A program made the position numbers and the translations under genes. From Octopus sinensis (Eukaryota), in the NCBI RefSeq assembly GCF_006345805.1, contig NC_043007.1, positions 48,794,001-48,858,000 of the forward strand: DNA of 64,000 nucleotides, written 5' to 3'. The notes beneath the pieces were generated by a model. That model had not been told where the DNA came from. It saw only the letters and a program-made list of their open reading frames with translations, and made no database searches. Below are positions 2,498 to 59,949 of the stretch, in pieces; position 1 is the stretch's first letter, and each line of letters begins with the position of its first letter.

Positions 2498-3759
2498 CGG
2501 CCGTGATGGATATATAATACTTCGATTAATATATACATTTATATTTTTTACACATTTCCTAATATTTTAAATTTCTACTACATTACTCCCTGTGGGGTTT
2601 TATCTCTTGGCTAGCTTTTCATTTGTATGACTTAGTTTAGTATTACTTCTGAGCAAAACATGAATGTGACATCTTTTCAGCTCACCCCTAGAGCTTTAGT
2701 CCTTTAGCATTCAGATTGATTAACAAAGACTCTTTCCCTAACAAATGCGCTGTCTTTTAGACTATTTTATATTTACTACAATAGCTTCTACTCTCTGAAC
2801 TAGCTCCCACCTCACTCAAAGAACCCATCTGGCACACTTGTTTCTCTGCTCTAGATACCCCTGTATCTCATATTATTGACCCTCGCAGATCCCACACTAA
2901 TCACTTTTTATTTGCCCAGTCTTTACCTTAATGAATGTCAATACTCTGTAATTTCTGCACTTCCACCCAGTTTTACCTGCAGTTGTTTATGTTGAACATA
3001 AACTGCATCAGTCTCTCCATACTCAGAGAAAAAAAAATCATAAGAGCTGGCCCTTGCCCTTGATTAAACCCTTAAAGACATGTAAATTACTATCATTTTT
3101 ATGTCTGTTTTTCCACACTTTCACCAGTTTTTCCTTGTCTTCCTCTCCCACAGGTCACTTTCATTTGAACCCTTGGTACTTCTTTACCCTGTGATCCCCC
3201 TCCATACACATCACATGTCCACACTACTTTTCATTTTATACTCAGTTTTTCCCTCAGATCATTTGTGCTCTCTTGTTCATGTACTCTAACATTACACATC
3301 CAGCAGGGCATGCTTGCCTCATTTTCTGCACATCCAGTACATTCAGTGTTCCTGTTTCATTACCATACAAAATAATACTTCATACATAAACATCATACAA
3401 TCCAATCTTAACTCAGATAGAATCCCTTTGTTACCAGCCAAAGTAAAAGCTCCCTTGATTTTTTTCCCATCCTAATCTTATTTTGGCTATTCTGTTTTCA
3501 AATTACTTATCTCCATTATTGGTCATCTTGACAAAAGAAGCTTTCAATTACTTCTATGAAACCTCCCATGTTCTTATTGCCAGCTGTTTTGTGTATCTTC
3601 CTTGTCATTCTGCCAATGGTCTTAGCTGCACCTTTTGTGCACCCATAATTTACATTATGCACACTATATAGAATTCCTACTAACATATTGGCCACTTCCC
3701 AGTCAAGTTCTGTTTTCTTGCTAATCAAAATTTTTTGATCTTTGCTAGGTATACTTCGA

Positions 3760-4994
3760 GGCCTCTCAATTCTAGGTTTACTAACTTGTTTTTTAAATTT
3801 GTTTTGAAAACCTTCAACATTTTCAGCCTTAAGAATTAAGTCATTGGAACACAAAGACAGCTATAAAAGCAGGTAGTAATTTTACTTTGTACTTATTCTT
3901 AGTGCAAGTTTTGAAGAGTGCAGTTCGATTTTAACAGTTATTTTTTCAAAGCTATAATGGAAGTGACAAAGGAATATATTTGGCATATTTTGCTTTATGA
4001 GTTCAATAAAGGCAACAACGCAATGGAAAGTGCGAGGAGTGTTAATGTAGTATATAGGGATCAGAAAATAAGCATAAGCCAGTGTCATCAGTTGTTGCAG
4101 AAATTCTGAGCTGGAAACTACAGTCTAGAAGACGAGCCTTGTCCTGGAAGATCTTTAGAGCTCAACAAGGACATCCTGCAAACCCTGGTAGAACAACATC
4201 CCATCGTAACTGTTGAACTCGCATAGAAGCTTGGATTTGGTCATTCAACCATTCATTGACACCTGTGTGCCATCAGAAAAGTCTGTAAATTGGGTCAATG
4301 GGTTCCCCACAGACTTTCTGAGTCTAATAGCGTGCAGAGAGTGAATGTGTGCTCTTCTTTGCTGTCATGTCTCACAAAGGAACCTTTTTTGGATCAAATA
4401 GTGACTGGTGACAAGAAATGGGTTCTCTATAAAATTGTCAAGTGCCAAAGACAGTGGGTAGGGAAAGGAGAAACACTAGCACCCGAGGCTAAAGAAGGTT
4501 TTCACCCATGGGATATGAAAGGTTTAGTCCACTTTGAACTTTTAAACCCAAACCAAATGATAACAAAGGAAATCTGCGAGCAGCTTAAGTCAACACTAGA
4601 AGTAAAACAAAGGTGAAAGGTGTTCTTCCATCAGCATAATGCTTGGCCACATACAGTGAGGATGACATTTCAAAGGCTTGAGCAGTTTGAATGGGAAATG
4701 ATGCCTCACCCACCATATTATCATTAGATATTGCCCCATCTGATTATCATTTATTCTGCTGTCTTCAAAACTATTTGAACAGAAAATATATGAATTCTGT
4801 AGACAAGGTCAAAATGGCACTGGAGGAATATTTTTCATCATGGACAAGTGAATTTTGGAAGAGGGGCCTTGCGAGTCTACCAGATAGATGGAAGAGCATT
4901 GTAGAAAGTGAAGGAGAGTACATTTTAGATTAAAAAAGAACTTTATCTTAACATTGAAAAGTATATAAAAACCACATTATGAGATAACCCAATA
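3760..4994 (+). mobile_element. Decayed mariner (DD34D, Mos1/SETMAR-like) transposon
   Basis: MEVTKEYIWHILLYEF, WVPHRL, IVTGDKKW, DIAPSDYHLF, EGEYILD*; stops and frameshifts; 3' TIR-like end ...taacccaa|ta; 5' TIR not found. Confidence 0.92.
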
Positions 4995-5576: not shown

Positions 5577-5713
5577 GGTGAAGTGCCATCCCCTCGAGCA
5601 GCTCATGCTTCCACGCGTATCGGTAATAAAACCTATGTATTTGGTGGCCGACATCTCTCTAAACGCATGAATGATTTATATTGCCTTGATTTAGATACAC
5701 TCCATTGGACCAA
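5577..5713 (+). CDS. KLHDC2: KLHDC2-like exon
   Basis: ctctag|...|gtgagt; GEVPSPRAAHASTRIGNKTYVFGGRHLSKRMNDLYCLDLDTLHWT matches PSPRAAH...FGGR....RMNDL. Confidence 0.95.
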
Positions 5714-5859
5714 GTGAGTTTGTTTCATTTTGTTTTTTGCTTTTCTTTTGTCACTATACTGTTGTACAGTGTTGTCTAACTGTAGATCACTTCTGATTGA
5801 GCAAGCATGTGTTATATGATGTTATTTAACCCTAGTTTAGTCCTGATTCAGCAGACCTA

Positions 5860-6120
5860 TAATTGTTGTTGGCATCCTTTTTGTCTCGGGAGACAATGGA
5901 GTTGCGCATAAAATAGTCCAGTCCGGCTTTTACATTTCATGTCCTGATACATTTCCTGCTATGGCTGTGTAGTCCTATCCTGGACAAACACTCCCTCTGG
6001 CAGGTACCGCAAATGTAGCGAAGACTGTTCCTGGCTGGTTGTAGTGTCATAGTTTCTTGTTGACGTCTTTTCTTGTCTTTCCATTTCTCCTCTCTTTCTC
6101 CATCACTCCTTTGTATTCCC
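5860..6120 (-). mobile_element. RTE/BovB-like LINE 3' fragment
   Basis: C-terminal C2H2-like CGTCQRECLSRIGLHSHSRKC followed by short 3' UTR and (caa)n tail. Confidence 0.8.
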
Positions 6121-7705
6121 TCTGCTGCTGTTGTTGCTGCCATTACTACTGCTGTTACCACTGCCTCTGCTACTGCTGATAGTGATATTGCTGCTGCTAC
6201 TACAACAACCTATAATTAACCCTTTTGTTACTGCATTTCTGTTGAAATACTCTTTGATTTCAATTAATTTTGAAAACAATGAAGAATTTAGTAAAATAAC
6301 TTAGTCGTTATTAATCTGGTGTTTGGAACATAAATTAACATGAAATTTTGATGAAAGGTTTTCATTTCAGTAACTTTAAATCTAGAAGTTTGTATCCTAG
6401 AACTAGGGCTAGTAGGTATTCCAAGCTTGACCATCCTGTTCTATTCTTTTAATATTTTTATATTTCTTTTTATGAACATAAAATCTCAGTGTGCATTTCC
6501 ATTAGTACACTTAGAGACACAAGACAGTATGATACAGTTTGAGTGAAATGTAGATGTTATTTCTAGCACATTTTTCAATCATGTAAGAAGCTCACTCATT
6601 GATTTATGTTATACTATATTGATGATGATGATGATGCTCGCTCATATAAAGTGAAATTAAGAAGCAATGTTTCAAGTATTATTTTATTGAGAATGGCAAA
6701 AGTTGAGTACCTTGAGGTTGGCAGGTTTAGGGTAGAGGAAAGACCAAATGAAGGATGGAAGAAGACAGAAATAGGTGAGAGTTATTGATGTTTAACCCCT
6801 GGTCAGTCAGCTCTGATCATGAAGACTTATACTCAGTTATTCCAGTTATGACTATTCTGCCTCTTTGTATATCCATGGCCACATTATCAAGTATGGCTGC
6901 TATTTCTAGCAGGTTAAGTTACTGCATAAGAGTTTCCTTCTTGACTCTAATAGTGATTGTAAAAGTACTGTATAACATTCTTTTATAATCTCATCAGGGT
7001 GGAGCTGAACTTGAGAAATGAGGTTAGTTTGAAACAAGAAAGAAGCAATGGAGAAAGGATGAAAGGTGTGTTTCTAATGTTTTTGTTGGATGAGAGCATT
7101 GGGAAAATGGACATAAAATGTCTGTATAATGTTGTCATGGAGTGGGGCTATCATCTTACTTTATTATTGAGACTTGTTGAAATCTTTTGAAGTCTTTGAT
7201 ATTCAAGACTACTTTGAGTTCCTAATATTAAAGCCATCTGTTCTAATTCTTTTCATATGAATCCACCTTAGACCACCCCTGGTGCTATGAATCAAACTTC
7301 CTATTTTAAAGTGATTTAAATTTAAAATCTTCCTTCAACATTTCATATTATGTCCCAAACACCTGCTTAATAATCTTTAATTTGTGTGTCTTTTGACTGC
7401 AGCCATCCTTGGGTATTGCCTTGGAATTTTAGTCAAATGTATCGACATGAGTACTTATTTTTTACACTGCCAATCTCTTGTGTCAAACCACTAAGTTACA
7501 AGGATGTAAACATACCAGCACCAGTTGTCAAGCAGTGGTGGACAAACACAAAGAAACTAACACACAGAACAGGCTTCTTTCAGTTTCCATCTACCAAATC
7601 TACTTACAAGGCTTTGGTCAGCCTGGGACTATAGTAGAAGACATTTGCCCAAGGTGCCATGCAGTGGGACTGAACAAAGAACCATGTGGCTAGGAAGCTA
7701 GTTTC

Positions 7706-7932
7706 TTATTTCCTTGTTGCCCATGAGGGGCTAAACATAGAGGGGACAAACAAGAACATAAAAAGGAATTAAGTCGATTACATTGATGCCAGTGCGTAAC
7801 TGGTACTTAATTTATCGACCCCGAAAGGGTGAAAGGCAAAGTCGACCTCGGCAGAATTTGAACTCAGAATGTAATGGCAAACAAAATACCGCTAAGCATT
7901 TCGCCCAGCGTGCTAACGATTCTGCCAGCTCC
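7706..7932 (-). mobile_element. SINE (family B); further copies at 14745-14925 (+), 55720-55930 (-), 59325-59525 (-)
   Basis: Shared tggcagaatcgttagcac...ctgagttcaaattc...gtcgactttgcctttca...gtcgataaa sequence. Confidence 0.85.
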
Positions 7933-8334
7933 ATACAGCCACACCTGCACCTAATGTCAAAGATATTTCACTAAATTTCTTATTTTTAAAATTAATTGAA
8001 ACAGTCAGTGTCTTTCAAAAGAAATATGGTAACAAATGGGTTATGAATGTTGTCTAAATCAAAACCTTATTTCATAATTTTTTATGTGTCTTTTTGTTAG
8101 ATTCCAAACACCAGTTTAATAATAACAAATTAATTATTTTTAGTAAGTCCTCCAAATTTTTTGTTACATTTTTATAATTAATTGACTTAATAGATGGTAA
8201 TTTTATAAGAAATATCTTCTTTACAAATTCATAAATTGATGATATTATTTAAAATGTTCAAATCTTATGACATTATTATTATTATTGATGCTGTTGTTGT
8301 TCTTGTAATCCTAACTCGTAATATCTCTTGGCAG

Positions 8335-8447
8335 GCCTCAGATAACAGGTCATGTCCCTTGTGGCAGATCTTGGTGCTCTTTCACAGCTGTTTCTCCCAC
8401 ACGCATTCTTTTGTGCGGAGGTTTTACTCAGGATAATCAACCTTTAG
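8335..8447 (+). CDS. KLHDC2: KLHDC2-like exon
   Basis: ggcag|...|gtaaca; PQITGHVPCGRSWCSFTAVSPTRILLCGGFTQDNQPL matches GRSW.S...GGFT.D.QPL. Confidence 0.93.
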
Positions 8448-9731
8448 GTAACAACACCCACCTTTTTTTATCTCTAATGATGGCATCATCTGCCTTGATA
8501 ATGTCTGTGTCTGCCTGATAATATCTGTGTTTGTGCCTGTTTGATAATGTCTGTCATCATCATCATTTAACTCCATTTTCCATGGCATAGGTTGGACAGC
8601 TTGACCAGAGCTGGCAAGGACAGTGGTCACACCAGGTTCCATATTTTGTCCTTAATGGAAGAAATAGATGTAACAGTGTATCTGACAAATGACCCAGGTT
8701 ACCGGGGCATCATTTGTGATAAATGTTCAGTAGGATATCTAGTGAACTGACAGGACACCTGGACTTCAGTTGTGATAGATTTTTAAGATTTTTAGTAGAC
8801 TGACAGGGAAGCAAGTCTTCATCTGTGATAAACATTGATTATGATTTTAGTCCGGCTGACATAGTACAAGGGCTTTTGTCGTAATAGATATACAAGCGTA
8901 AACAATAAGAATACCTATGTAATGGAATTTATGATCTATTTAGCTCACTAGACATTGTTCTGTTACTATGGTAGCCTACTTAGTGCATTGTAGTGATGGT
9001 AAGTAGATGCAGAGATAGTAGTGCAGCTAAAGTGTGGAGGGTATAGGGATAGTTCAGAGATCTGTTGCTTCTGTAGAAAATAAAGGCTTCCTTTCTGTGT
9101 AAAAAGTAGAACCACATACTAATGAGAGATGGACATTAAATGTATTAACCTACATAAGAGGTAGTGTACGAGAGAGAGGGAGATTGGGTATTAAAAATAT
9201 AAGCTGAGGTATGCAGGAAGAATGATTGTGTGGGAATGATGCATATAGCTGATAAATGAGTGTGGGCAATGTCTATTTTCTGACATTGAAGGATACCTGT
9301 AACTGGAAACCCAAGAATTAGAATTCATGGCTAGAGGTGGGGTTAAATAGATCTGAGGGTTTTGGACCTGAAAAGTTTGTGAGTTAATGCAGGCTTTAAA
9401 GGAATGTGATGTGCCGTATCACAGACTACTACACTATACCAGCATAGAAATTATCACTACCACTGTCACCACCATCATCATGATTACGTACTTTATTCTA
9501 CTGGTTTTCACATGTTGAATCATTGAACTGTGCAACATATATATGCAGAACATAGACATTAATGCAGAGATGCATGGAGACAAACTCATAGATGCTCACA
9601 TTGTGCGCGTGCGTGCACACACACACACACACACACACACTAACATTAGAATGATAATCACCTTCATCATAATATTTTCTAGGAGTGTTTCTCTCTCTTG
9701 CTATCCTGTGCTACTCTTCTTTATTTTTCAG

Positions 9732-9892
9732 CTGATATCTGGTTATTTGATGTAACTACTTTTAGCTGGATAATCTATGAGATGTCCTTCTCTATACCCC
9801 GCCTCTGGCATTCCTGTTGTGTCACTCCAGATGATGACGTCATCATATTTGGAGGTTGTTGTAGTAATATTTTGGATTATACCCAAAAAGCT
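9732..9892 (+). CDS. KLHDC2: KLHDC2-like exon
   Basis: tttcag|...|gtaagt; DIWLFDVTTFSWIIYEMSFSIPRLWHSCCVTPDDDVIIFGGCCSNILDYTQKA (PRLWH, VIIFGGC). Confidence 0.95.
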
Positions 9893-10900
9893 GTAAGTAA
9901 TAATAATTTCTTCTACCTTCTTCTGCAATGTCTTGTTGTCCTGGTGATGATGCTGTTGTGTTATGGTCTCAGAAAATTTCAGTTGGCAATACAGTTTCAA
10001 ATCTTAGTTGGAGATTTACATCATTAACATTCTAAAGTGGGGCTATAATGAATGCCATAACTTCCACTTCTGCACTTATAAATAAAATGAGGTTTCTTCA
10101 GGTTCACCTGCCTGCTAAGAATGGCAGCCAAATCTTCCTGAAAAGGGGTCATTGGAAGGCAGTCTGGGGTTCACTATGCCTGAAATGAATAAATGGAATA
10201 GTTATGGTTGGAATACCATTTTTGTCATATATCTGCTCAGTTAGGGCATACCTTGGGCTTAGCTTGATGCTGACTGAGTGTTCTTTCAATCTGAATGCCC
10301 ATTTTTGCTGGTTGAGTGAAATGAAGCCAACATGAAGTAAAGTGCCTTGCCTAAGGATACAATGTTTCCCAGCCTGGGAATCGAACCCATAACTTTGTGA
10401 TTGAGAGTCCAGTTATCTTCTGGCTTGTAAAGCATTTCAAATGGCATCCAGACATAGAAACTATGCCAAAACATATGTTGGAGTTCAACATAGTCATGTC
10501 CTCTGGCTCATTGGATCCTGTCAAATCATCTAGCCCATGCTAGCATGGGTTACAGATGCTAAATGATAATAGAAAGGAAGACACTTGTCCAAGGTGTGAA
10601 CCTTGAACCACATGGTTTGGAGGCAAACTTCTTAACAAAACAGTCATGCCTATGCCTTGTATTTGTTAATGCAGATTGTTTTCTTCGGATATTTTTGTGG
10701 AAAAATGCACCTCATAAGCAATGAAATGATAAGAAACCCTTGATCAGATGTTAGGGCCCTGATATATAGTAAGTAACTGATAAATTGGCTTAGCTGTCCA
10801 AAAGACCTGAATATCGTAATTAATTAATCCATTACTCTTCCTTCTTATCTCTATTGTGTGAAATTTTGTATCAGAAAGTATTTGTTTTTCATGTTTTTAG

Positions 10901-10953
10901 ATCCACACAAACGAAGTAATACAATTCCGGATCAAACCAAAGTCTCTTTTGCA
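10901..10953 (+). CDS. KLHDC2: KLHDC2-like exon (start of BC box)
   Basis: ttttag|...|gtaagt; IHTNEVIQFRIKPKSLLQ resembles HSNEILIFSVQPKSL. Confidence 0.92.
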
Positions 10954-12005
10954 GTAAGTTAACTTTTTTTTTTCTACATGGTGGTTACTATCATATCCCA
11001 CTGTTTTTATAACCATTCCACTGTGTCTTCAGTTATTCTACTTCACATTTGTTAGCCCTGACATTGCCTTTGTTTGTGGTCATTACTTAGGGGAGAAAAG
11101 ACAACACTAGTGACCATTTTCTGAGGTCTCTAAGACTTAAGGGAAGAAATTACATCCAACCAAAGACCAGAGTGAATGATGACTTTGCTAAAGTCACCCA
11201 GTGACCAGGTAATGGTGTGAGGTTAATAGATAAACGCTACCACCCATGAACTAGAATATCTCCAACAAGCTTCCATCTAGTTTTCATCTACCAAATTTCA
11301 GTCACAAAGATTTTGCCAACTGAAGACAATACTAGAAGATACTTACCCAATGTGCCACATAATGGGATTGAACTGAAAACCAAGTAGTTGCAAAATAGTG
11401 TTCTTAATCACACAACCATGCATGTACCATTGTTTCTACTTGATTGACATGGCACTTGTTGATCTATCATTACTACTTGAAAATTATTAAGTTATCCCAA
11501 CTTGTTGACCCACGAATCAACTCAACAAGGAAACCTCTGTATGGCTGTGTGACAGCACAAAAATCCCTTAAATCACTCTCTGTGTCATAGAAAAGGGACA
11601 CTGGATAATGTGGTCCTTAGCTACACTGTGCCTTCAAAAGAGATGGGATAGAATGACACTGGCTATAAGATCTGCTTCATCAAGGTTGACCTGAGGCTAA
11701 ACAACAACCAATCTACAATTGAAAAAGCACTTCCCCAATTAATTTTGATGGGCTGTGTGGAAAATGATGATGTTAGGAAAGTAATTGTTAGAATAGTTTC
11801 ATGTTTATGGGTAGTGGCAGGGACCTCTATCTCATCACCCTAGATGTCCATTCTTCTAAAACAAATATTCAATACCTGTGCCACTGTACATGACTTTCAG
11901 AAGTAGGAGTATATGAATTTGAATTTTGAATCATAATAAATGCCAAGAGAAATTACTCATGTGCATGCAGGAATGTAAATGGGTGTCAAATGTTGTGAGT
12001 GGGGT

Positions 12006-12630
12006 CATCATCATCATTTAGCATCCATTTTCCATGCTAGCATGGATTAGATGGTTTGACTGGGACTGTTAAGCCAAAGAGCTGCACCAGGCTCCAGTCT
12101 GTTTTGGCTTGGTTCCTAGAGCTGGATGCCCTTCATACTACCAACCATTCCAAGAGCATAGAGGGTGCCTTTCATCTATCACTAGCACAGGTGCCTCTCG
12201 CACGCCACTGGTACAAGTGCCTCTCATACGTCACCAGCACAGGTGCCTTTTCCATGTCACTGGCACTGGCCACAACTATGATTTCACTTAGCTTGACATG
12301 TCTTTTCAAGCACAGAAAATTGCCAAAGGTCTGTATCACTTACCATTGTCTCCATGAGACTCAACAGCCAAAGACCATGCTTCACCACCTCATCCCATGT
12401 TTCCCTGGCTCTTCCTCTTCCACAGGTTCTCTCCACAGTTTGAGATCAGCACTTCTTTATGCAGCTGTCCTCATCCATATGCATCACATGACTATACCAG
12501 CACAGTCATCTTGCTTGCATACACAATTGAAGCTTCTTATGCCCAATTTTTCTCTCAAGATGCTTAAAATCTGTTATATGTGTACTCTGACATTGCACAT
12601 CCAGTGAAGCATATTAACTTCATTTCTTAT
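12006..12630 (-). mobile_element. 5'-truncated RTE LINE
   Basis: Reverse complement of the 3' part of the 38930-42570 element, with (gat)n tail. Confidence 0.85.
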
Positions 12631-12830
12631 TTGTGTCTGATGGTGTTTAAAATATATTCAGCTAACATTAGTTGTTGAAGTTTTTCATGCTAATGATTAA
12701 TCAGAAGTTTCTTATTCTGTTTTACTCTGAAACTAAAAATGTTAGCAATTCTCATTGGAATTTTTGTTGAGATTCAAGCCTTTGTTAATTAGTTCTTTTG
12801 TTTTAAATTACAACTTTTTTATTTTTTTAG

Positions 12831-12972
12831 ACTGTCTGTTGATACACTAGTAAAATACCGTCAGAAAACAAAAGCAGAGTGGAAGTACTTGCCTCAAAGG
12901 TTATTTAAATATGCCAAATTAAAGGAGCAGGCTATTATAAATGACCCCATCAAATTCTCTTCAAATCTGGTA
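12831..12972 (+). CDS. KLHDC2: KLHDC2-like exon (BC box / cullin-2 box)
   Basis: ttttag|...; LSVDTLVKYRQKTKAEWKYLPQRLFKYAKLKEQAIINDPIKFSSNLV (W..LP..L); tandem donors after 12969 and 12972. Confidence 0.88.
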
Positions 12973-34447: not shown

Positions 34448-35280
34448 AAGTATGCTTACCAACATAGGACATTCCTAAAAGATTAATCTTTAATTTACTG
34501 TTTATTCACATTTGCACAATTGTTTAGCTTTGTTCCTGTTTCTGCAATGTAATTCTCATTGCATTGTGGGCATGTGATGCAGTAGATGAGTTTTTTTGCT
34601 TTGCATTTCCTGTTCACATTTCAATTCTTTGCCATTCTTCAATCATTTGGTTGTTCTCTGTTCAATTATTTCACATGTCCCACAATGTAGGTCACCATTG
34701 TTTGTTACCTTCATTATTTCTTTGGTCTAATTCTCTTATTTCATTGGCTTTATCTAGTGTGATGTTGCTACTCTTAACTAGTTTCCCTCTTTTTAGGGTT
34801 ACTTTGGCGCATTTTTCAAATCCAAATTTCATATCTATTTCTTTGGTAAATCCATGAACTGCCTGTAGTAGTGTTTTCAGCTGTTTGTCATTTGTAGCGT
34901 ATGGTTTTAGGTCATCCTTATATAAAATGTGGCTGATCATTTTGCTGTAACATTTGTATCCACATCCAGTTCTATTTAGCATATCAGATAGAGGTGTCAG
35001 TGCCAAGCAGAAAAGTAGTGGAGAGAGCGTGTCTCCCTGGAATATTCCTCTTCTAATGGGGATGGCTTTTTTTTTCATGAGTCCCTCTTTTGTTTGGAGC
35101 TGTAGCACTGTCTGCCATTTATTCATGGAGTGTCTTATGTATTTTATAATTGTTGGTGCTACCTTGTTAATGGCTAGTGTTTCAAGGATCCACGTGTAGG
35201 GAATGCTATCAAATACCTTTCGGTAGTCAATCCAGGCCATACTGAGACCTTTTTTCTTTCTGCGGCTGTCTTCAGTTATA

Positions 35281-35704
35281 GGCGCAGGAGTGGCTGTGTG
35301 GTAAGTAGCTTGCTAACCAACCATATGGTTCTGGGTTCAGTCCCACTGCGTGGCATCTTGGGCAAGTGTCTTCTGCTATAGCCCCGGGCCGACCAATGCC
35401 TTGTGAGTGGATTTGGTAGACGGAAACTGAAAGAAGCCTGTCGTATATATGTATATATATATATGTATACATGTGTGTGTTTGTGTGTCTGTGTTTGTCC
35501 CCATAGCATTGCTTGACAACCGATGCTGGTGTGTTTATGTCCCCGTTACTTAGCGGTTCGGCAAAAGAGACCGATAGAATAAGTACTGGGCTTACAAAAG
35601 AATAAGTCCCGGGGTCGAGTTACTCGATTAAAGGCGGTGCTCCAGCATGGCCACAGTCATATGACTGAAACAAGTAAAAGAGTAAAAGAGAAAAAGAGAA
35701 AGAG
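35281..35704 (+). mobile_element. Young tRNA-derived SINE (family A) nested in the R4-like RT
   Basis: Box A TGGCTGTGTGG, box B GGTTCAGTCCC; CpG-rich; tata(g) target duplication; splits host KAI|TEDSRRKK. Older copies at ~5020-5180, 7380-7705, 11270-11425, 22570-22935, 28555-28860, 44155-44340. Confidence 0.93.
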
Positions 35705-36222
35705 TATAGCTTTATTGATCATTAGTTGATATTTACAGCCATATGAGCCCTTGCAGCATCCTTTCTGCTCTTCTGGGAACAGGTTGTTTTCGTCCAGGTG
35801 CTTGTTCAATCTTTGCGATATTACTGCAGTAAGGGCTTTGTACATTGTAGGGAGACAGGTTATAGGTCTGTAGTTTTGTGGTTTCGCTGTTTCATTGGAT
35901 TTGGGAATTAAGATGGTTTTCCCTTTCGTGAGCTATTCAGTCATTGTCTCTGGCTCAGCCAGAATGGCGTTAAAGTTTTCAGCCAGCTTTTTGTGCATTC
36001 CTGTCAGATATTTCAACCAGAAGTTCCAGTTGCTTAGTCTTTGCAGTGCCTGAGTGACCTCTTCAGTTGTTATGGGTGTCCAGAGTTGCTCAGGTGCTAA
36101 GTTTGCTGTTTTAATAGTTCTTTTCTGTGGTTGTTCATTTGCCGACCATATTTCTTTCCAGAATTCTTCCACTTCTTCTGCTGTTGGTGCCAACTTTTTG
36201 GGGTTGGAGTTGAACTCTTGGT

Positions 36223-37262
36223 GCCTTCCTCTCAGATCGCTCCTTCCAAGTTAATGGTTCGCTGTCCAACGTCTCCAGTGCGAGCAGTGGTGTGCCTCAA
36301 GGTTCAGTGCTTAGGCCCTTATTGTTTTTAGTCTCCATAAATGACTTGCCCAACAACCTTACGCAACACACTCTTTTATTTGCCGATGATGTCAAACTAG
36401 TCACTCCTCGCAGTGATATAGATGATCTTCGTTGATGCCTCCACCAAGTTTGGAGATGGTCTAACGAATGGGACCTGTGTCTGAACGTGTCAAAGTGCTG
36501 TCATCTGCCTGTTGGCTCTTCTCCTGCAACTCAACTTGATTTCGAGCTGGGTCGTCTGCTGCTGGAGAAGACCGACCAGGTAAAGGACCTGGGTATCTTG
36601 GTAGATTCTTCCTTTTCGCCTTTGGCCCAGTGCGTCCATGCTGCCAACAAAGCACGCGGAGTTCTGTTTTTGATTCAACGGTCATTCGGAATGCTCACAG
36701 CAGCCATATTCCTACTGCTCTATGTCACGCTGGTGAGACCCATATTGGAGTATGGGATTCAAGCCTCTTCTCCTTATCTCCTCAAAGACATACATCATCT
36801 CGAAAGAGTCCAGAAGCTGGCTACCCGCATGGTTCTTGGTCTCAAGCATTTGTCTTATGAAGAAAGGCTGAAGATGCTCGACCTTTATTCTCTAGAAAAA
36901 CGCCGCCGCCATGGTGATCTCATTCTTGCTCACAACATCATAAGCGGAAAGTGTAACCTCTCGAAAGAGCTGTTCTTCACTCCTGCTCCAGAGCGTCGGC
37001 TGCGGGGTCACTCCAAAAAGCTCTATCTGCGACGATTTCATCTCAATCGAAGGAGAGGGGCTTTCTCTGTCCGGGTTGCAGATCTGTGGAATAAGCTGCC
37101 GGACGAGATAGTGAAGATGCCAACGACCGCTCGGTTCAAAGTCTCTCTTGACCAGAAATGGCCTGAACTCTTTGCATGAACACCCTCCCTGTACATAACT
37201 CCATGTCCCCCTACATGGCCTTGCTTTTTGCTTTTTGAGCCAAAAAATTAACTTAACTTAAC
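36223..37262 (+). mobile_element. Young 5'-truncated CR1-clade LINE nested in the R4-like element
   Basis: GVPQGSVLGPLLF, LFADDVK, LVRPILEY, LERVQKLATR, FSVRVADLWNKLP; (TTAAC)n tail; splits host FFEQ|NQEFNSNPKK. Confidence 0.95.
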
Positions 37263-38929
37263 TTTTGTTCAAAGAAATGTTGGCGTTTCTCATACCAGCG
37301 GATCCTGTGTGATTTGGCAAGGATATCTTGCTTTAGCTTTTCTTTTATCTCAGGTAAATCTTTTTCTGTGATGTATTTGCACAGTATTTTTGTTTTCTTC
37401 TTGTTGCTTAGTAACGTTGATTGTCTGCTAATTTCGTTAAGAATCGACAGATCTTTTCTCATTTTTTGTATTTTAAGTTATTTATCCACAGGGTTTGTTT
37501 GGGTGGTGGTACTCCTGTTTGGATGGGTTTGAGGGCGTATCCAGCTTCTTTTGTGGTGGCAGTGGCTGCTGCATATATTATGTCATTTAGCTCAGTGATA
37601 TTGCTATTTGTTTCAGTGGCTATTAGTTCCGTGATGGCCAGGTTTATGCTGTTTATTGTTGATGTTGTTTTGTTGTATATTTTTATTCTTGGGAGGTATG
37701 GTCGGTGGTCCATTCTGAGATCTGTGGTTTTCAGTTCTTTGATTATTCTAGTTTTTATAGTATCATAATCATTAGGTTCCCCTTCGTTCTTTCCAGGTTT
37801 TAGATGTGTTTTGTTTTCTTTCTCATTCGTATGTTTGTCTGTGATGTTTTGTATATCATTTTGCATCCCTACGGTCTGGGTTTGTTGTTTTTTGTTTACT
37901 TCATTTTCGTTGGAAACATTACGTTTGTATTCATCTTTTACTATCTCAGTGTTTATATTATTTGGTATTGTTGTGTGGCTTCTATCTCCATTTTCCTGAT
38001 GTATTTTTTTCTTTTAAATGTTCTATTTCTATTTCTGATATTTTTTGCGTTGAGAATATATCTTCTTATGTTAGTTAGTTTATTAGCGTTCATTGATGTA
38101 TCCAAGTCTTTATTAGGTTATTTTTCTTCCATATTTTATATATATATGTTGTTGTGTTTTCGTTGTTTGGGTAGAGCACTGCTGTAAAGTAAGCATGTAG
38201 GATTGAAATATATTCCTCACGTGTCCATTTATGCCTTTTTGGTTTTATTTGCAGGACATGAGGAACAACGTCTGTCCCTTTATTTTGACGGTCATCATTT
38301 TCATAGGGTACCGGTCTGTTCATTTCTGTTGTCACATTGTTTTGCATGTGTAGTTTTTCGTACTTTTTGTGTGACAAGTTTAAAGTACGCATTTCCCAAT
38401 TGTTATTCTTGGTTGAATAATACTGGTATTATTTAATTTATTTGTAGTTTTTTTGTACATGTTGTTTGGGGCCAGAGATGGTCTGGTGTTGATGGATTGT
38501 AATGTATCAAGCATGTTTACATGTTGTGCTGTACGAGAGGTGGAGATGATATCGAGTTAAAATACATCATTTCGTTTGGAAAATAGTAATAAATTTCAAT
38601 GAGTATTACTTACTCGGATATAGTCCAATCTTTTGTCAGCAATTTTTTGGCTCCATGCGATGTCTTTGTTTCCGATGTTTGTGGATAGATTTCGGAGCAC
38701 TGTTTTATTGTTCTCACATGTTAAATGTCCTCCGGAGTTCTCTTTAAACATCCCCCATTGTTGTTGTTGTTATTCTTTATCTAACTTTATTGATTTACTT
38801 ATATTTTCAACTCCTGGAATGCTTAAATTTACGTTTTTACAATGTCCATAAAGCTTATACTTACAGTGCAGCTAACTCCTACTCCTACCCCTAGTAGGGG
38901 CAACTATCTTAACATGCTTGAATGTTTGA

Positions 38930-45686: not shown

Positions 45687-47883
45687 CCCCTTGCAGAGAG
45701 ATTTAGTACTGACAGTCTGTGCTGTGTACCAGTATTAGGCCATTCAGTAACTACATAATTTTACATGCAAGGAATTTTACAGTGTATCTTCTCAGTGTGG
45801 TATATTTGAAAACACGGTGCTGCACAAAGTGAAATGCTGCACTGCTCACATTCAAAGTTTGTTTCTTTTCACACACTGCTCTTTGTACAAAGACCACATC
45901 TTCTGTACAGTCATGGTCTCCTCCCTGATGAGGGAATAATGGCAGGGAAATTTCTCCGTCAACCTTGCTGGACCAAGTAGAGCAGATGGTCTACCTTGTG
46001 GTGTGTACCCTTCAGGAGGGCAGTTGTTACACACTTCTTTGATCAGTGCTAGTCAAAAATCAAGAAATCGTTCCCATAACTGTCAATGCAAAGAAGGCAG
46101 TGACCAAACAAAGGTTGAGCAGATAGAAAAACATTTTCTTATACCATTTGATGGTTTTTCTATCACAGGAGTGAGATGTGGTCATTTGATTGGAAAAATC
46201 CACCTCACTCATGCCTTCATTGTAACTAAGAACACAATTTAGCTTCCTGACAATATTTCCGCGCTTATCAATTTCTGACATTTCAGCGGTATGTTGCATG
46301 GATAACATTTTTACAAGCTTTTTATCTTTCCATAACAAAGTGAGTAAACCACTTGTGATGGAATGAAAGTCAATCTCATCCTTTTATCAGGGTCAAATTC
46401 ATATCCTTGGGCATGTCCTTTAGATTCAGATGAACCATTCTGATTACTTTCGTTTTCTGTTAATAGGGAAACAGAAACAACTTAGGGCTGCTGAAGCAGT
46501 TGTCCATATGAACATTATACCCTTTGCTGAGCAGATGTTCATTCAGCTCCAACACAATCTTCTGGCTCACAGGAATGTCACTCTGCTCCTGATCTGAGTA
46601 TATTTTGTAATTGGATGTGCATCCTGACACAACACCTCCACTCTGGCACACTTTGAAAACTTTAATTCCGAATCGTGCCCATTTTTGGAGTTGTACTGCT
46701 TGAATTCAAGTCTACTTTTGAATTTCCAAAAAGACTCATCAGTAGCAACATCCTGGTCTGGAATATACACAGTTTTGAACTGTTCAGTCAGAATATCAAT
46801 GACTGCCACAATTTGAACAGTTGGTCATTATCTTCAAAATCGTTGTCATTGAAGTGCAGATTGTGTTAAATCTGCTTGAACTGATCGCAAAGCATCATAT
46901 TGTGAAAAAATGGTGCGCACAAAACTGGGTCCCTGGTTCAGTATAACTTCATATCCAGTTCGAGATGCAGGCCCATCAGTATCAAGAAAGACAAAAACAA
47001 GTCCAACCCATTGGGTGTGACATCTACCCACTTTCTGGAGTGACTTTGCTGGGTAAAGTGATGATTGGTAGCAGCGTACCAATTCCCAGTGTCATGAAAA
47101 ATTTGAGAAACTGGAGTGGCATGATCAATGCATCCACATTGAAGAATGTAATTTTGGGCTGCTCCATGAATCCATATCACTTCAGGACATTGTCCTTCTT
47201 TGACCAGTGTATAGTTTTACCAGTATCGCAAGACTTCCCAGCATATGCAGCCAGTGTTTTGTCAGAATCCAAGGATGAACTACCATCTCTCACAATTTCT
47301 GCAGGCTGTAGTGGTTCATCATTGCTCTCGCTGTCGGATTCTTAGTACTTGCTCTCTGGGCTTGAGTCATAATCTGACTCACTATCATCATCATCATCAT
47401 CATCATGGGAACATCCTGGTACCAGTTCTTCATGCCGCTGAACTTAATGTTTCAGAGGCATAGCGATTGCAAGAAAATTCATAAAGAGTTCAATAGCAAC
47501 ATCCATGCTTTTACAGATCACTTTAGTTTATGAAACTGAGCAGAAGTATTATTCACTTTTGCAAGCTTCTTAGTGGGAGTAATATTCACTTCTTCACACT
47601 AACAACAGAGATATGCATGACTACACATCAGTCACATGCATATAACCTCATCTGTGGGCATCACTTAATAATAACCCCCCAAAAAAACCCAGCTTATTCA
47701 AAATTCCAAACAGAAATGTAGGATGCAGTCATAACTGTCATCCACTGTTACCAGAAATTCTTAACAGTAAAGCAGGCTGTAGCAATAGTTGCTATGCAGC
47801 TGTACACTATTGTGGTTCCACCATCATCCAGCCATGCACACAGTGTTTCAATATAGTCAGTACCACTTCCTGTCTGCAAGGGG
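45687..47883 (-). mobile_element. Full-length decayed piggyBac transposon (PGBD4-like transposase)
   Basis: TTAA on both flanks; TIRs CCCCTTGCAGA/TCTGCAAGGGG; ATDESFWKFKSRL, VHMDNCFSSP, YNEGMSEVD, KWYKKMFF, C-terminal Cys cluster. Confidence 0.95.
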
Positions 47884-52722: not shown

Positions 52723-53958
52723 CTGAAATTACAAGTCTTTTGCTTTTTTATTAGTGAACATATGATTGTCTGTGACCACAGTTGCAGGGATCGTATTGAC
52801 CAAAGTATTTATTTGAGTGTTTTACTCATTTTATCAATCTCTATTTATCAAATGGCTAAGTTATGGTTATGACATAAGGTTCACAATTTGACACACTATC
52901 TTGCATTACACACCCATGCACACACACACACACACATACACACACATGCACACGCGCGCGCGTACACACACACACACACACATACACACAAGCATTCCTC
53001 TTGTTGCAGAAACTCTGATTACACAATCCCTCACTTGCTGGAACTAAACTTGGGCTATAGCGGATAATTCCACCTTTACAGAAATTTAGGTAAATGTTAA
53101 CAATTTTAAACTAAATTCACAATATGTACAGACACACACACTCACACATATGAATATAAAACAATTTCATTTAGAATTAATATATACTTAGCGTGACAAT
53201 TCACTTAACCACTCTTCATCATTTTCTTCTCACAATATCATCATCATCATCATCATCATTTAATGTCAATTTTCCATGCTGGCATGTGTTGGACAGTTTG
53301 ACAGAAGCTAGCAAGCTGGAGAGCTGTGCCAAGCTCCAGTTGTCTGATCCGGTATGGTTTCTATGGCTGGATGCCCTTCCTAATGCCAACTACTTTTTAT
53401 ATGGCACCAGCACAGGAGCTTTGTATGTGGCCCCAGCACAGGTACTTTTTACATAGCATCAGCATGGGTGCATTTTATGTGTTGCTGGCACAGATGCTTT
53501 TTACGTGACACCAGCATGAGTGCTTTTTATGTAGCACCAATATGGGTGCTTTTTATGAGGCATTTTGTATATTTTTGTTGCTTATAACCAACCAGCTCAA
53601 CTCTTTGAATGATTTAATTTATTCTCCCACAGTTTATTCTTTTTCATTTGTCATTATCCTTGATCCTTTTGTTACCATATTTCTTCTGAAACACATAGAC
53701 TTTGCTTCAGTTAATTTTTAAAATAATGAAGAATTTAGTAAAGCACCATTATTATTATTATTATTAAGTTGGTTTTTTAAACAAATTAGCAGTATTTTGA
53801 TGACAAGTTTCAGTTTAGATCACTTTAAATCAAGAAATTTGTATCATAGAACCAGAGGTGATTTCAGGCAGGTTGCTATCAAATGAGTGGACATTCTTTT
53901 CAACATCAATCTACCCCTTCCATATAAGTCTTCTAATGACATCATTAAGGTTACTTAC

Positions 53959-54057
53959 AAATAATTACTCTGATATTTCTTCCGTAAAGCTTCTCTCTCA
54001 AAGTAGAAATGGAAATATCGCAACAGGTTGATGAGGAACAAGTCAAACTGCGGGGAA
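53959..54057 (-). CDS. PPP1R36: PPP1R36 exon
   Basis: cttcag|...|gtaagt; SPQFDLFLINLLRYFHFYFEREALRKKYQSNY resembles DEFLMALLYYLSHYLEK. Confidence 0.92.
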
Positions 54058-56464
54058 CTGAAGAAGAAATAAACAAATAAATATACAAGTTAATATAAGT
54101 TATTGATTGAACATCTTTGAACAGATATATTGCTAGATAAGTCACTCTTCCTATTAATTTTGACTAGTAGGACCTGTGAATATTTCACAGAATTAATGGT
54201 AAACCTATTGGGTTATTTCTGAAAACTTTATCCAAAAATCCTGAAAGTGTAGCCTGTATTGTGTCTGTATGGAAGAAGAGTCACCCATCTGCTACTCATT
54301 GCAAAGTGAAAGAAATTGGAATGCGATGATTACTTAATATGCACTTTATATATACACTTTATATACTTTATACACAATTTTATAGGCTTAATATGCAGCA
54401 CTCATAAAATAAATGTTCACTCTTATTTTTCCATTTTCCCCATAAACAAACAAAAAGAAAATCCCATACATATGATACAACCCTTAGCTGAATTGCATAT
54501 ATCTGCTATGTAAACTAGCATGAATATTTCATGGAATTGCACTTAGGCGTATGTGTTAAGTGATAGAACTTAGTTCAATTAAAAGAAAAGTACTCTTTTC
54601 ACTATGCAATCACCACTCTCTCTACCCCTCTCCCTCTCTTTCTCCCCTCCCTCTCTCTGCTTTTCTTTAACCTCATCATCAGAACAGCACCCCTCTGCTA
54701 AAATTATATTTCTAACTCTCTTTCTCTATATCCATACCTTCAACTAACATTTTTAACCACGTAAAAGATTTTACATTCCCCCTACCACATATTACAAATG
54801 CTTTTTTTCTCTCTCCTTCTTTCTGTCTCTCTCTTCACCCTATCCTTTTTCTCTCCCCTTTTTCTTTCTCCTCTCTTTCCCTCCAACTAATCACTTGAAA
54901 GCATTATAATTACATTCCTCTACCTCACATCATGGACACTTCTCTCTCTTTTTCTCTCTTCCACTTTTCTTTCTTCCTCTTTTTCTCTAATCCTGTGAAA
55001 GTGTTACTGATGGGCTAAGTAACATAATGACAAGCAGAATTATTATAAGATGGCGTTCTTCCATGATACTGCCAGTGAAAGCTTCTCTATACGCTACAAG
55101 AAAATGTTTTTTCTTACTGGATACAGGAGTCGGGCCTATAGCTTTTGCAGTCCCCATGAGATTGGGGAGATTGATGTGGTTAATGTTTCTTTCAAACAGT
55201 AGCAAGTCAATAACTGAAGGAAAAACATGTCCTTAGATGTAGGGTCCCATGACAACCTGAGGGAATTCCAGTTCTGTGAAGAAATGACTGGATATGGTGG
55301 TTAACAAAGGCCCTGAAGGAGCAGACAGAAGTGGTAAAAGATAGATACATGAATGAGTCAAGAGTGCCTAGTACAACACTACAATTAATGATACAAGGAG
55401 CAAGTTTAGAGTAAATTATAAATCTGATGGTTTGAATCCAGTACATTAACTAAGGTGTCCTTTCCAAGGTTTTATAAAATAATTTAAAAGAGCTTTGACT
55501 GATATTTTTAGCAGATCAAGCCACTGAATGAAGGCTCCATCATTGGTTCAAGGTGTAGATATAAAGTGAAAATGAATTTAAAAAATATGAGTATTTGGTG
55601 ACCCTGTTATTGTAATCTTAATGAAGACCGTTAACAAGTTTGCATAGAGCAAAAATGAAGAAAACACTGCTATGCAGGAAAACTATCAAATGGGTTAATG
55701 AGAATAGTTTTTATATTGATTTCAAATTTTGGCACAAGGCCAGAAATTCCAGGAGAGAGGTTAAGTCGATTACATCGATCCCAGTGTCCAACAGGTACTT
55801 ATTTTATTGACCCCTAAAGGATGAACAGCAAAGTCGACCTCAGTAGAATTTGAACTCAGAATGTACAGGTAGATGAAATGCCAATAAGCATTTTACCCAG
55901 TACGCTAATGGTTCTGCCAGCTCACCGGCCTCAATAGTTTTTATATTGTTGTTCAATAGTGTTCTCTATAAATAGCATCTCAATTTCTTCCAGAGACTTC
56001 AGTTGCTAAAAATAAGTTCAACATTTGAGTTCACATTAACTTGATTACCATAACAACAGACAACCAGCATTGGTGTTTCAAAATCATAGCTATCTTAAAA
56101 ATGGAAATATTGTGGATAATGTAATTCTAGGTACACTGCCTGGAAACAAAAATATAAAATGGTGTGGTCATGACTGGAATGCTTTGATCAAAGATCTGCT
56201 CAATCAAGACTGTGATCTTTGGCTAAACAACAATGGCAGCAGCAATGGCATTGGTAACAACAGTGATGGCAATAACATTGGCAACGGTATTGACAACAAC
56301 AGTGATGATGACAACAGCATTGATGATGATGATGACAATAATGACAGCAAAGAATTATTCACTTTTATAATTTATGATTATGTGAAAATCCTTCCTTGGC
56401 TATGAAGAAGATGTTAAATTTGTTAAGTCAGTACAAATTTTAAAAAGCAATTACTAATACGTAC

Positions 56465-56531
56465 TGATAGATTGTGTAGAAGCTCTCGGGTGTCTTACCA
56501 AAATGATAAGAAGTGGTCTGGTCAGTAATAC
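56465..56531 (-). CDS. PPP1R36: PPP1R36 exon
   Basis: ttcaag|...|gtacgt; ITDQTTSYHFGKTPESFYTIY; phase 1-2 bridges its neighbours. Confidence 0.78.
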
Positions 56532-57178
56532 CTTGAAGACAATTAACAGGGGGTTAGTTTTAAAAAAAAAGAAAAGAAAGAGAAGAAAGAGGAAATGTAT
56601 AGTTTTAATTATTTTCTTAAGTGAGACAATCACAATATTACTAACTGTTCAAAAATAATATCAAACTACAGATGCATTAGCAATTTACAGTTTATAGCTC
56701 ACACCATAAATACAGTCAAATGTAAACGTCTTTATATACCATAGCTTAATGGACAGAAAAAAGGGAATCAGACAGACTAATTTCTGTTGTGTAACTGAGT
56801 ACCCTCCTTAACTCTTTTGATACCAACCTCATCAAATTGTTCATTATTTAAAAAAATTAATTGAAACAAAGACAGTGTATTTCAATAGAAATATGTTAAC
56901 AAAAAGGTTAACTACCCACAGACATGATACATATAAATTCACTGTTCTCATGTGAACTGGATGGATTAATTTGGTTATATATCATTCTCAGTCGTGAGTT
57001 TTATCAGTAAACTACTAATGTTAACAGTGTGTTTGTTTCAGTGTTGTACAATGCATAACATAGTACTGTCAGTATATGTTTAGATAACACACTATACATA
57101 TATAATGTAACCACATGTGGATCGTTGGCGATTTTTTCCCTCCGTTTTCCTTTTCTCTTGAACTTTCCTCCGTCTCCT

Positions 57179-57213
57179 GTTTCTGATGAAGGACTTTGCT
57201 TGAAACATAAAAA
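57179..57213 (+). ncRNA. Minimal type I hammerhead motif with intact core, in a ~220-bp pyrimidine-rich unit (~57110-57330)
   Basis: TTT-CTGATGA-AGG(ACTTTG)CTT-GAAA-CA-TA-AAA. Confidence 0.6.
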
Positions 57214-57323
57214 CTACCTTTCTTTCCTACCCTGAGCATCTGCTAATACTTTGTATGTACCGCATCCTTGCGTTGTTGTTTTTTCTTGTGTTTGCTCTTT
57301 ATTTTTTGTTTGGTTTTTTTTTT

Positions 57324-57360
<37 letters not shown>

Positions 57361-57533
57361 TTTGTATTGTAAAAGGTTGTTCTTTCCTAGGGATAAATTT
57401 TATTGAAACATACATCAGTTTAGCTCTATGTTGATTAACGATATTGGAAAAAAAAATTTTAAGATTATAAAGAAAAATGGAGAATACATACATAGGATAA
57501 TCAATTTATTTATTATATCAAAGTCAATTCATA

Positions 57534-57624
57534 TTGCCTACCAGGCATTTCAGTTTGTTGCTCCATCCAACTTTGCATATTTAAAGTGCATTAAAAGTTG
57601 AAAGCAAAAATCTCCTCAGGGCAA
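57534..57624 (-). ncRNA. Type I hammerhead ribozyme motif with intact catalytic core
   Basis: TTGCC-CTGAGGA-[GATTTTTGCTTTCAACTTT...AAAGTTGGATGGAGCAACAAACT]-GAAA-TGCCTGG-TA-GGCAA; 5-bp stem I; GUA site. Confidence 0.75.
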
Positions 57625-57637
57625 ATTGTCTTCCATT

Positions 57638-57728
57638 TTGTCCTGAGATCGTTTTTGCTTTCAACTTAATAAGGCACTTTAAATGTACAAATTTGAATGA
57701 GCAACAAACCAAAACATTGCGTAGGCAA
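57638..57728 (+). ncRNA. Mirror, mutated hammerhead copy
   Basis: TTGTC-CTGA(-)GA-...-AAAA-CATTGCG-TA-GGCAA; one core base deleted and G12 changed to A. Confidence 0.65.
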
Positions 57729-57799
57729 TATGAACTGACTATGGTAATTAATAAATAATGTGATTATCCTATGTATATATTCTCCATTTTCCTTTATAT

Positions 57800-57843
<44 letters not shown>

Positions 57844-57889
57844 CTGTGGTTTATGTGTATTTGCATGATGCACCATGTTCATATTTCTG

Positions 57890-58380
57890 TTTTGAACCTC
57901 TCTTTATCTTGTTATCATTCAGCCTAGCCCCTATACATCACTTATCCCCATGTGCTTCCATTCGTCCCTAAATTGTGCCCCTTTTCCATTTGGACCCAAA
58001 TTGTTTCCCTTTCATCTTCCCATCAACATGAAGGTCTCCCAGGTAGTCTCTTCTGACCTCTTGGATATCAGTTATGACTGCAAAGGTCCACTTGTTGTAT
58101 ATGAGCCTTGTGACATGTCTGGCCCAGCAGAATTTGTGCTTTTGGTATTCTATAATTATATCATTCACTCCACTGTGTTTTCAAATTACCTCATTTTGGA
58201 TATGCTTCCAAAAAATACTGTATAGTTTTAGCAAGTCTAAAGGCTTTAACTGTGTAATGTTCATTACTATTGTTTGGCAATTCTGTTTTGGAGCTGATTA
58301 GATTTTCATGTACCCAGTAAATAAAGATTTCTTGGTGTTTGCTGTGCCTCTGAGCCTGATTATGTTTCCAAGACATTTTC
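57890..58380 (-). mobile_element. Old RTE-like LINE 3' fragment
   Basis: KFCWARHVTRL..NKW motif. Confidence 0.65.
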
Positions 58381-58652
58381 TATATTACATTTTTCTTCTT
58401 TACATCATCCATTTTCATTTATGTCATACCAATTTTATCACTTTTCTCAATTATTCTACAGATTAAGACAATTCCTTGCAATTGGAAAGAAAGTTACTCT
58501 CTTGGAGAGAAAATTACACAGCTTCCTACTCTTAATTATTACTAAGAACTAAATTATAGCAACTTACATCATATTTATGTGATGACTTTATCTCTCTAAT
58601 GAGATAATTAGAGTTCAAACCCTACCACAACCTCAGATAAATAGGAACTTAC

Positions 58653-58750
58653 TTTTTAAGTGCTGCAGTGTGACAACATCAGTTGATTTATGGAAAGATG
58701 AAGATTTTTTAAATACAGGTTGTCCAGGATGTTGCTCCCAAGAAGTTTTC
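58653..58750 (-). CDS. PPP1R36: PPP1R36 exon
   Basis: ctgcag|...|gtaagt; KTSWEQHPGQPVFKKSSSFHKSTDVVTLQHLK; phase 2-1. Confidence 0.82.
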
Positions 58751-58936: not shown

Positions 58937-59949
58937 ACACACACCAACATACATATACATATATATTTATTTTATGCACACACATTTAGAACAGATGAGA
59001 GAAGTGAGGTGAGAGAGTAGATGTTTATTCTATTCATTCACAGCTGTTTCATAGTCTTGTCAGTTATATAATAGATGTTACATCAATTTTAACTTACATA
59101 TAAAATAGAACAATGTAATTTTAGAGGGAGAAGTTTAAAAAAAAAAAGAAATAAAAGTCAAATAACCAGAAAAATATAAACATAAATGATAAAATAAGTT
59201 TGTGAAAGATGATGTGGAAGGAATAAATTAATTTCCAAAGAGAGGTAAGTCGACCAGTCTAGTATTAATTTAGGTGAATAAATGAATAGATAAATATGTA
59301 AATAAATAAAGAAAATAAATAATGGTTTCAAATTTTGCCACAAGAGCAGCAATTTTGTGGGAAGGGTAGAGTCGCTTACATCAACCCCACTGTTCAACTG
59401 ATACTTATTTTATCGACCCTGAAGGATGACAGGCAAAGTTGACCATGGCAAAATTTGAACTCAGAACATAAAGACAGACAAAATGCTGCTAAGAATTTTT
59501 CCCAGCATGCTAACAATTCTGCCTGAAAAGTCATGTGGTCAGTTGGAAGAGAGGAACATAAAGGGTGAATATAATAAGGTTTAAAAGAAAGATTAGGACA
59601 GAAAGTGGGGCATAATTTGTTGGAATTTCATGCCCTGCCAGTTTTGAGGGATGCCAGAAGAATATTAGTATGGTATCAAATACATACATATTCTGAATAA
59701 TCACAAGCACATTAGCACACATGTTCATACATTCAAATGTGAGTATTAGTGCACACATACATACATACATACATACATACATACATACATACATACATAC
59801 ATACATACATACATACACACACACACAGACACAACCATTTCACACATATATATAGACACACACATGTATATGGACACACACATTTTTTACATATTTTATA
59901 TATAGTCATAGACTGGCAATTCCATTCATCCCCAGTTTGATTCAAGTAC

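Follow-up and report, generated by a model that had tools for sequence, protein, structure and literature searches.

Does the intron of PPP1R36 in Octopus sinensis harbor a self-cleaving hammerhead that is restrained by its own antisense strand, or the remains of an ordinary mobile element? The question is raised by a 333-bp foldback at positions 57466-57798 of the window, by which we mean the whole 64,000-nucleotide stretch that was analysed (contig NC_043007.1, positions 48,794,001 to 48,858,000). A first-pass annotation had described the foldback as two head-to-head hammerhead units, and the structure bears this out. Two arms (57466-57628 and 57634-57798) flank a 5-nt loop (57629-57633) and are about 80-83% complementary, with 27 mismatches in 162 aligned columns and 6 gap columns in a global alignment. 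The minus-strand RNA of the foldback has a minimum free energy of -177.1 kcal/mol (z -22 against 100 shuffles); this value, together with membership in a dispersed family, rules out a chance inverted repeat. We consider it very probable that the foldback consists of two 5'-truncated 3' ends, joined head to head, of a Penelope-like retroelement that is dispersed in the genome and has reverse transcriptase (RT) and GIY-YIG domains, an old insertion into (TA)n in neutral decay, with a hammerhead that is predicted to be inactive.

PPP1R36 occupies the minus strand of the window. A 44-residue frame at 53958-54089 led to protein P0001, which carries PF14895, is named PPP1R36-like in Octopus records and matches the window exon by exon (tblastn). 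The gene was identified through this homologue because its short exons, taken in isolation, have no Pfam match; a PF14895 profile search of the genome returned no match, and its controls were likewise silent. The foldback lies inside a minus-strand intron of the gene (56532-58652), with the donor some 850 nt and the acceptor some 930 nt away, and therefore the minus-strand hammerhead unit is the sense one. The exon mapping confirms the orientation that had been proposed, including that the complementary arm is made first. Any head-to-head insertion would impose this order by its geometry alone, in either gene direction. The span given earlier for the foldback stands, but the element continues beyond it, through a tail, to 57359. 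The features, in the order in which PPP1R36 is transcribed, are as follows.

58653..58750, minus strand: coding exon of PPP1R36 that precedes the host intron, P0001 residues 61-93 (tblastn, 33/33 identical; GT donor at 58652)
56532..58652, minus strand: host intron, 2121 nt, GT...AG (exon mapping; splice ends)
57799..57840, no strand: (TA)n microsatellite beside the tail-less arm, likely insertion target (TRF tract 57795-57840)
57634..57798, plus strand: tail-less arm, a 5'-truncated 3' end of the element with broken boxes; antisense in the PPP1R36 pre-mRNA and transcribed first
57622..57640, no strand: inversion junction, imperfect 7-bp palindrome with loop 57629-57633 (junction and sister copies)
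57466..57639, minus strand: tail-bearing arm, a 5'-truncated 3' end of the element
57534..57624, minus strand: degenerate type I minimal hammerhead, sense to PPP1R36, with a long (~60 nt) helix II region
57359..57465, minus strand: the element's tail, present on this side only and shortened by an internal deletion of 116 nt when compared with natural copy L026
57327..57358, no strand: (TA)16 microsatellite beside the tail, likely insertion target (TRF)
56465..56531, minus strand: coding exon of PPP1R36 that follows the host intron, residues 93-115 (tblastn; acceptor and donor)

The surroundings contain further features. Exons of a Kelch-repeat gene (window 5577-12972, plus strand; two exons match KLHDC2/KLHL20/DRC7 as their best Pfam model, at E 4.5e-13 and 2.1e-5) converge tail-to-tail on PPP1R36. 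A 103-residue exon-like frame at 3516-3860 (minus strand), with acceptor and donor present, a weak ARM match (E 0.022) and no clear Pfam family, is possibly a third gene that overlaps the Kelch gene. The next intron of PPP1R36 holds a 121-residue Asn/Asp-rich open frame (56040-56405, plus strand, antisense to the gene; no Pfam match), and a ~200-nt repeat, probably a SINE, is found in neighboring introns (55713-55918 and 59319-59523, plus strand), its two copies about 75% identical. Broken frames at 34692-38013 (minus), 36436-37179 (plus), 4260-4616 (plus) and 45855-47345 (minus) we take, by eye, to be LINE reverse transcriptases, a mariner-type transposase and a piggyBac-like transposase.

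The element itself belongs to a dispersed family. The tail-bearing arm has at least 43 DNA matches genome-wide (70-96% identity, excluding the self match), and a longer copy used as the query has at least 44. With a profile built from 42 natural copies, the loci fetched yielded 51 insertions comprising 66 distinct units. The genome has nine exact occurrences of a 20-nt motif taken from the ribozyme's 3' half; seven of these were already in the copy set, so the set probably covers much of what is probably an old and smallish family. Longer copies carry GIY-YIG and RT remnants upstream of the hammerhead. In two of them (L051 and L047), read against relatives of 759 and 806 residues (P0009/P0015), the RT, an Asn-rich linker, a Cys motif, the GIY-YIG domain and the hammerhead are colinear on one strand; the focal copy, being truncated, contains no RT or GIY-YIG coding sequence. 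A CxC...CP...C linker precedes GIY-YIG in the family. At E<=0.001 the RT fragment finds 2217 relatives. Pfam lends weak support, with GIY-YIG (E 0.0011) and, in one relative, RVT_1 (E 0.00085), both under the curated cut-off, and no match for eight of the ten relatives scanned; leads from the ESM Atlas were RVT_1/HTH_animal (12-38% of cluster members) and GIY-YIG (40%). When the RT and EN fragments were searched against word-indexed proteins, no match reached E<=0.001, and a PDB sequence search was empty as well. Among the loci fetched all frames of the family are broken, and there was no full-length copy in which direct pLTRs in partial tandem might be seen around a full ORF. Tracts of (TA)n lie on both sides of the focal insertion and at many copy ends; because the focal flanks are themselves (TA)n, a target-site duplication is unreadable there.

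To judge from sequence, the family is an endonuclease-containing (EN+) Penelope-like element. Its motifs resemble Nematis elements, and Nematis and Neptune are candidate clades for it. A MITE-like DNA transposon is ruled out, as the longer copies lead into RT and GIY-YIG, and so is a tandem retrozyme, as neither TRF nor the unit layout reveals a head-to-tail array. A more distant Penelope-like family is represented by a 593-residue open frame with a long Asn-rich insert (L043:2847-4625, minus strand, contig C8); endonuclease frames related to it are very abundant (12355 first-look candidates).

Units on opposite strands are arranged in one way only: the 51 insertions include 14 head-to-head pairs and no tail-to-tail pair, and 14 is an undercount because most loci had a flank of 1.5 kb only. 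A tail of about 215 nt was detected on exactly one arm in 13 of the 14 pairs, on neither in one and on both in none, one tail-less arm having been inspected over 28 nt of flank only. The focal locus fits this pattern, with the tail on its minus arm and none on its plus arm, which ends at (TA)n. The tail can be seen, for example, at L020:1695-1908; at ~215 nt it is five to seven times the described 30-40 bp. This length suggests widely spaced reverse-transcription start sites.

The head-to-head architecture with a one-sided tail is already published for Penelope-like elements. In PMC3846280, head-to-head is the most frequent layout; palindromes are noted at junctions, one inverted pLTR may bear a tail, and Asn-rich inserts are described. 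According to PMC8557442, a 5'-truncated copy lies adjacent in inverted orientation, a tail of 30-40 bp is present on one side and there is a (TA)n bias, and PMC11167929 ties the tail to two reverse-transcription start sites. Dual minimal hammerheads on opposite strands, 100-700 bp apart, are reported in Schistosoma in PMC4209133. With the EN+ insertions of PMC3846280, PMC8557442 and PMC11167929 the octopus family has in common an RT followed by a C-terminal GIY-YIG, the Cys linker, the Asn-rich insert, a hammerhead near the 3' end, head-to-head inversion, a junction palindrome, a tail on one arm and, probably, AT-rich/(TA)n targets. It differs in the length of its tail, and the focal copy differs in lacking coding sequence. 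The simpler reading offered by the first-pass annotation, a neutral Penelope-type inverted insertion, is directly supported by the RT and GIY-YIG of the longer copies, the head-to-head pairs, the one-sided tail and the (TA)n flanks.

The palindrome at the focal junction also lies just upstream of the hammerhead in sister copies L002, L004, L009 and L011, and is likely the site of fold-back priming, a mechanism that we infer. The element's endonuclease would have nicked the intronic (TA)n tract. Reverse transcription may then have begun at two sites ~215 nt apart, leaving one arm with the tail and one without, and synthesis would have folded back at the junction palindrome. Later point changes, CpG deamination among them, would have abolished G10.1-C11.1 and the palindrome of helix III. 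Pairing of the two arms in the pre-mRNA is predicted to give a duplex of ~160 bp, which would be a by-product of the geometry and would be spliced out with the intron.

How much of the ribozyme is left was assessed against the family, for which 56 near-complete units were compared and 10 truncated units were dropped. Most often the motif takes the form of a type I minimal hammerhead with CUGANGA, GAAA and UH boxes, stems I and II, a palindromic helix III (ACGC-N-GCGU) and the pairs G10.1-C11.1 and G10.2-C11.2. Over 51 units, 81.7% of 649 cells are paired, compared with 26-44% for slid partners. U-A and C-G are exchanged at 10.3-11.3 (18 vs 11). Covariation is modest, with 16 of 500 shuffles as high, and RNAalifold on 51 copies predicted no consensus pair. 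The one fully intact hammerhead among the 56 (L086:2372-2479, plus strand, contig C7 near 65402498) is in a head-to-head pair.

The focal sense unit had been credited with an intact core. Its three sequence boxes are indeed present (CUGAGGA at 57619-57613, GAAA at 57551-57548, and GUA), and all 11 box nucleotides, H17 and stem I (UUGCC/GGCAA) are kept around a scissile bond at 57539/57538. The pairs bordering the core are a different matter: 10.1-11.1 is G·U (57612/57552) and 10.2-11.2 is A×C (57611/57553). To call stem III weak, as had been done, understates its condition. Position 15.2-16.2 is U·G, 15.3-16.3 and 15.4-16.4 are mismatched, and with none of three Watson-Crick pairs left beyond A15.1-U16.1 the palindrome of the family is gone. 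The same changes create a 5-bp hairpin that, as read from the sequence, could sequester the cleavage site and stem I. The plus-strand unit is mutated, as had been recognized, with CUGAGAU and AAAA in place of its boxes (G8, A9 and G12 changed).

Folding calculations add little discrimination. The isolated focal unit folds no better than shuffles (z -0.30). Constrained monomer folding gave ~1e-8 for the focal unit and 8e-8 for the most intact copy, and the fold probability was low for nearly all 11 copies tried, so the measure does not discriminate. A homodimer duplex of the focal helix III segment (-8.7 kcal/mol) was discarded, as by hand it proved to be out of register and to pair the cleavage-site base. 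No second same-strand copy for a dimer was found in the window or in 60 kb of neighbors searched, and an Rfam scan of the window gave nothing at the gathering threshold. According to PMC4209133, G10.1-C11.1 and the helix III palindrome are conserved features of Penelope-like minimal hammerheads, and a related single motif showed no cleavage as a monomer, while dimers gave low cleavage. An Anolis Penelope-like hammerhead cleaved only with the element's protein, according to PMC11167929. The N7 of G10.1 is a metal site (PMC6961537), and G10.1 is kept in the focal unit. Paired changes at 10.1-11.1 occur in cricket hammerheads, and because of this variation the G·U may merely slow cleavage. The focal hammerhead is predicted to be inactive; we leave this at a prediction because G10.1 is kept, because cricket hammerheads vary at 10.1-11.1 and because monomer folding is non-discriminating.

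The first-pass annotation had proposed a test of whether intact cores are enriched in foldbacks. Among the 56 units compared, they are not: boxes are intact in 19 of 56 units (7/24 in foldbacks vs 12/32 solo, p 0.58), and boxes together with stem I in 13 of 56 (4/24 vs 9/32, p 0.36), in counts that take the copies without gene context or strand and carry a similarity-search bias. The single unit with a fully intact hammerhead is not the focal one. Core positions have changed at 8.6% per site (52/602), from which hand arithmetic predicts that ~37% of units would keep all 11 sites, compared with 34% seen. Across copies, core sites differ less (8.6%) than the 3' non-ribozyme block (13.7%); we read this lower change as possible selection in source elements, a signal inseparable from selection after insertion. 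Transitions are found at 76 of 326 core CpG sites vs 45 of 539 other C/G sites, and two of the changes in the focal unit are C-to-T at CpG, the main decay route of the family.

The two focal arms show no sign of having been kept alike. They are 80.5% identical, against an average of 82.5% within the subfamily. Of all relatives of the sense arm, its partner comes 11th in similarity; the arm is 89% identical to L002 and L004. Concerted maintenance of the arms is ruled out, as they are no more alike than unrelated copies, and their mismatches are not significantly biased toward G·U-preserving changes in the sense transcript (10 vs 6, p 0.45). Two DNA-type sequencing runs from other organisms gave only short, probably paralogous pieces, none of which spanned the foldback region, and are uninformative on conservation.

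Could the focal unit nevertheless be a competent hammerhead, co-opted by PPP1R36, held by the antisense arm and freed by ADAR editing or helicases to cut the pre-mRNA, as the first-pass annotation inferred? Cephalopods edit RNA heavily, the duplex is very stable, the antisense arm emerges first and the unit is in the sense orientation with its boxes and stem I intact. We nonetheless regard this reading as extremely unlikely. In the folding model the duplex is 71 kcal/mol more stable than the best fold that is compatible with a hammerhead. If the antisense arm alone is edited, the gap narrows to 68-50 kcal/mol with inosine treated as G, or to 58-29 kcal/mol with inosine treated as unpairable, and with all 53 paired antisense adenosines edited 50.5 or 29.0 kcal/mol is left, respectively. 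Modelled editing leaves a cage of 29-68 kcal/mol, and it would also strike the core itself, in which five of six adenosines are paired in the duplex and so are editable. Two RNA-type sequencing runs gave 0 contigs over 57362-57792 and are uninformative on expression or editing, and none of the runs that contain the sequence is recorded as RNA. The helix III pairs are missing, the base of helix II reads G·U and then A×C, a same-strand partner is absent from the window and the 60 kb searched, box retention is not enriched in foldbacks, and related minimal hammerheads did not cleave as monomers (PMC4209133) or without the element's protein (PMC11167929). The proposal of a self-cleaving element in restraint is not supported by this evidence. 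Because pairing next to the core has been lost, the foldback is likely an ordinary dead insertion and not an RNA switch. A variant in which unwinding or asymmetric editing, perhaps with a protein chaperone, permits a co-opted conditional switch to cut despite its weakened helices deserves hardly any credence.

Other readings grant that the unit is no longer active. The insertion could have been live when new, have escaped purifying selection through caging by its inverted arm and have decayed later, so that caging acted as a selective filter and not as a function. Such geometry cages any head-to-head insertion, the host intron does hold a sense copy, and hammerhead retrozymes are under-represented in Xenopus introns according to a preprint. 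This remains an improbable account, since a minimal hammerhead on its own should have next to no activity and so needs no cage, and since the retention of boxes and stem I counted above, in copies without gene context, lends no support to the earlier suggestion that the insertion was tolerated because it was caged. Alternatively, the ribozyme may be dead while the ~160-bp intronic duplex itself acts, either serving as an ADAR substrate or altering how the flanking exons are spliced. The duplex predicted is long and stable and would lie ~850-930 nt from each splice site, but the complementarity of the arms shows no sign of maintenance, and we find an effect of this kind very hard to credit. Neutral decay of a Penelope-like insertion is the reading that we retain.

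Amniote intronic hammerheads (RECK, C10orf118) are ultraconserved, canonical monomeric ribozymes with a stable helix III and deep conservation. A sense-strand type I motif in a large intron is common to them and to the focal unit, which differs in being a decayed member of a repeat family. With the metazoan Penelope-like minimal type I hammerheads of PMC4209133 the octopus family has in common a short stem I, an enlarged helix II and a short palindromic helix III suited to dimers; its helix II region is far longer (~60 nt), and the focal copy has lost G10.1-C11.1 and the palindrome. Non-LTR retrozymes (bioRxiv 10.64898/2026.07.22.740005) are likewise non-coding derivatives of a Penelope-like 3' end with a type I hammerhead. 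Those are head-to-tail tandem arrays, whereas the focal units are inverted and TRF detects no array. A squid genome paper reports 235 hammerhead matches and Penelope elements. Within the literature surveyed (titles and the openings of abstracts), we found no editing- or antisense-gated intronic hammerhead and no paper on the locus, whether as an octopus Penelope-like hammerhead or as PPP1R36 with a ribozyme; supplements or Repbase may list the family.

The focal foldback is likely one more decayed Penelope-like insertion and not a special element. Its modest use is as a clean example: head-to-head geometry alone gives any such intronic insertion the look of a caged ribozyme, so matches of this kind need their helix II and helix III pairs and their family background checked. 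If the switch reading were true, the locus would hold a natural ribozyme that editing or a helicase gates within the pre-mRNA of an animal. The family, with a tail of ~215 nt on one side and a long helix II region, slightly extends the range described for Penelope-like elements.
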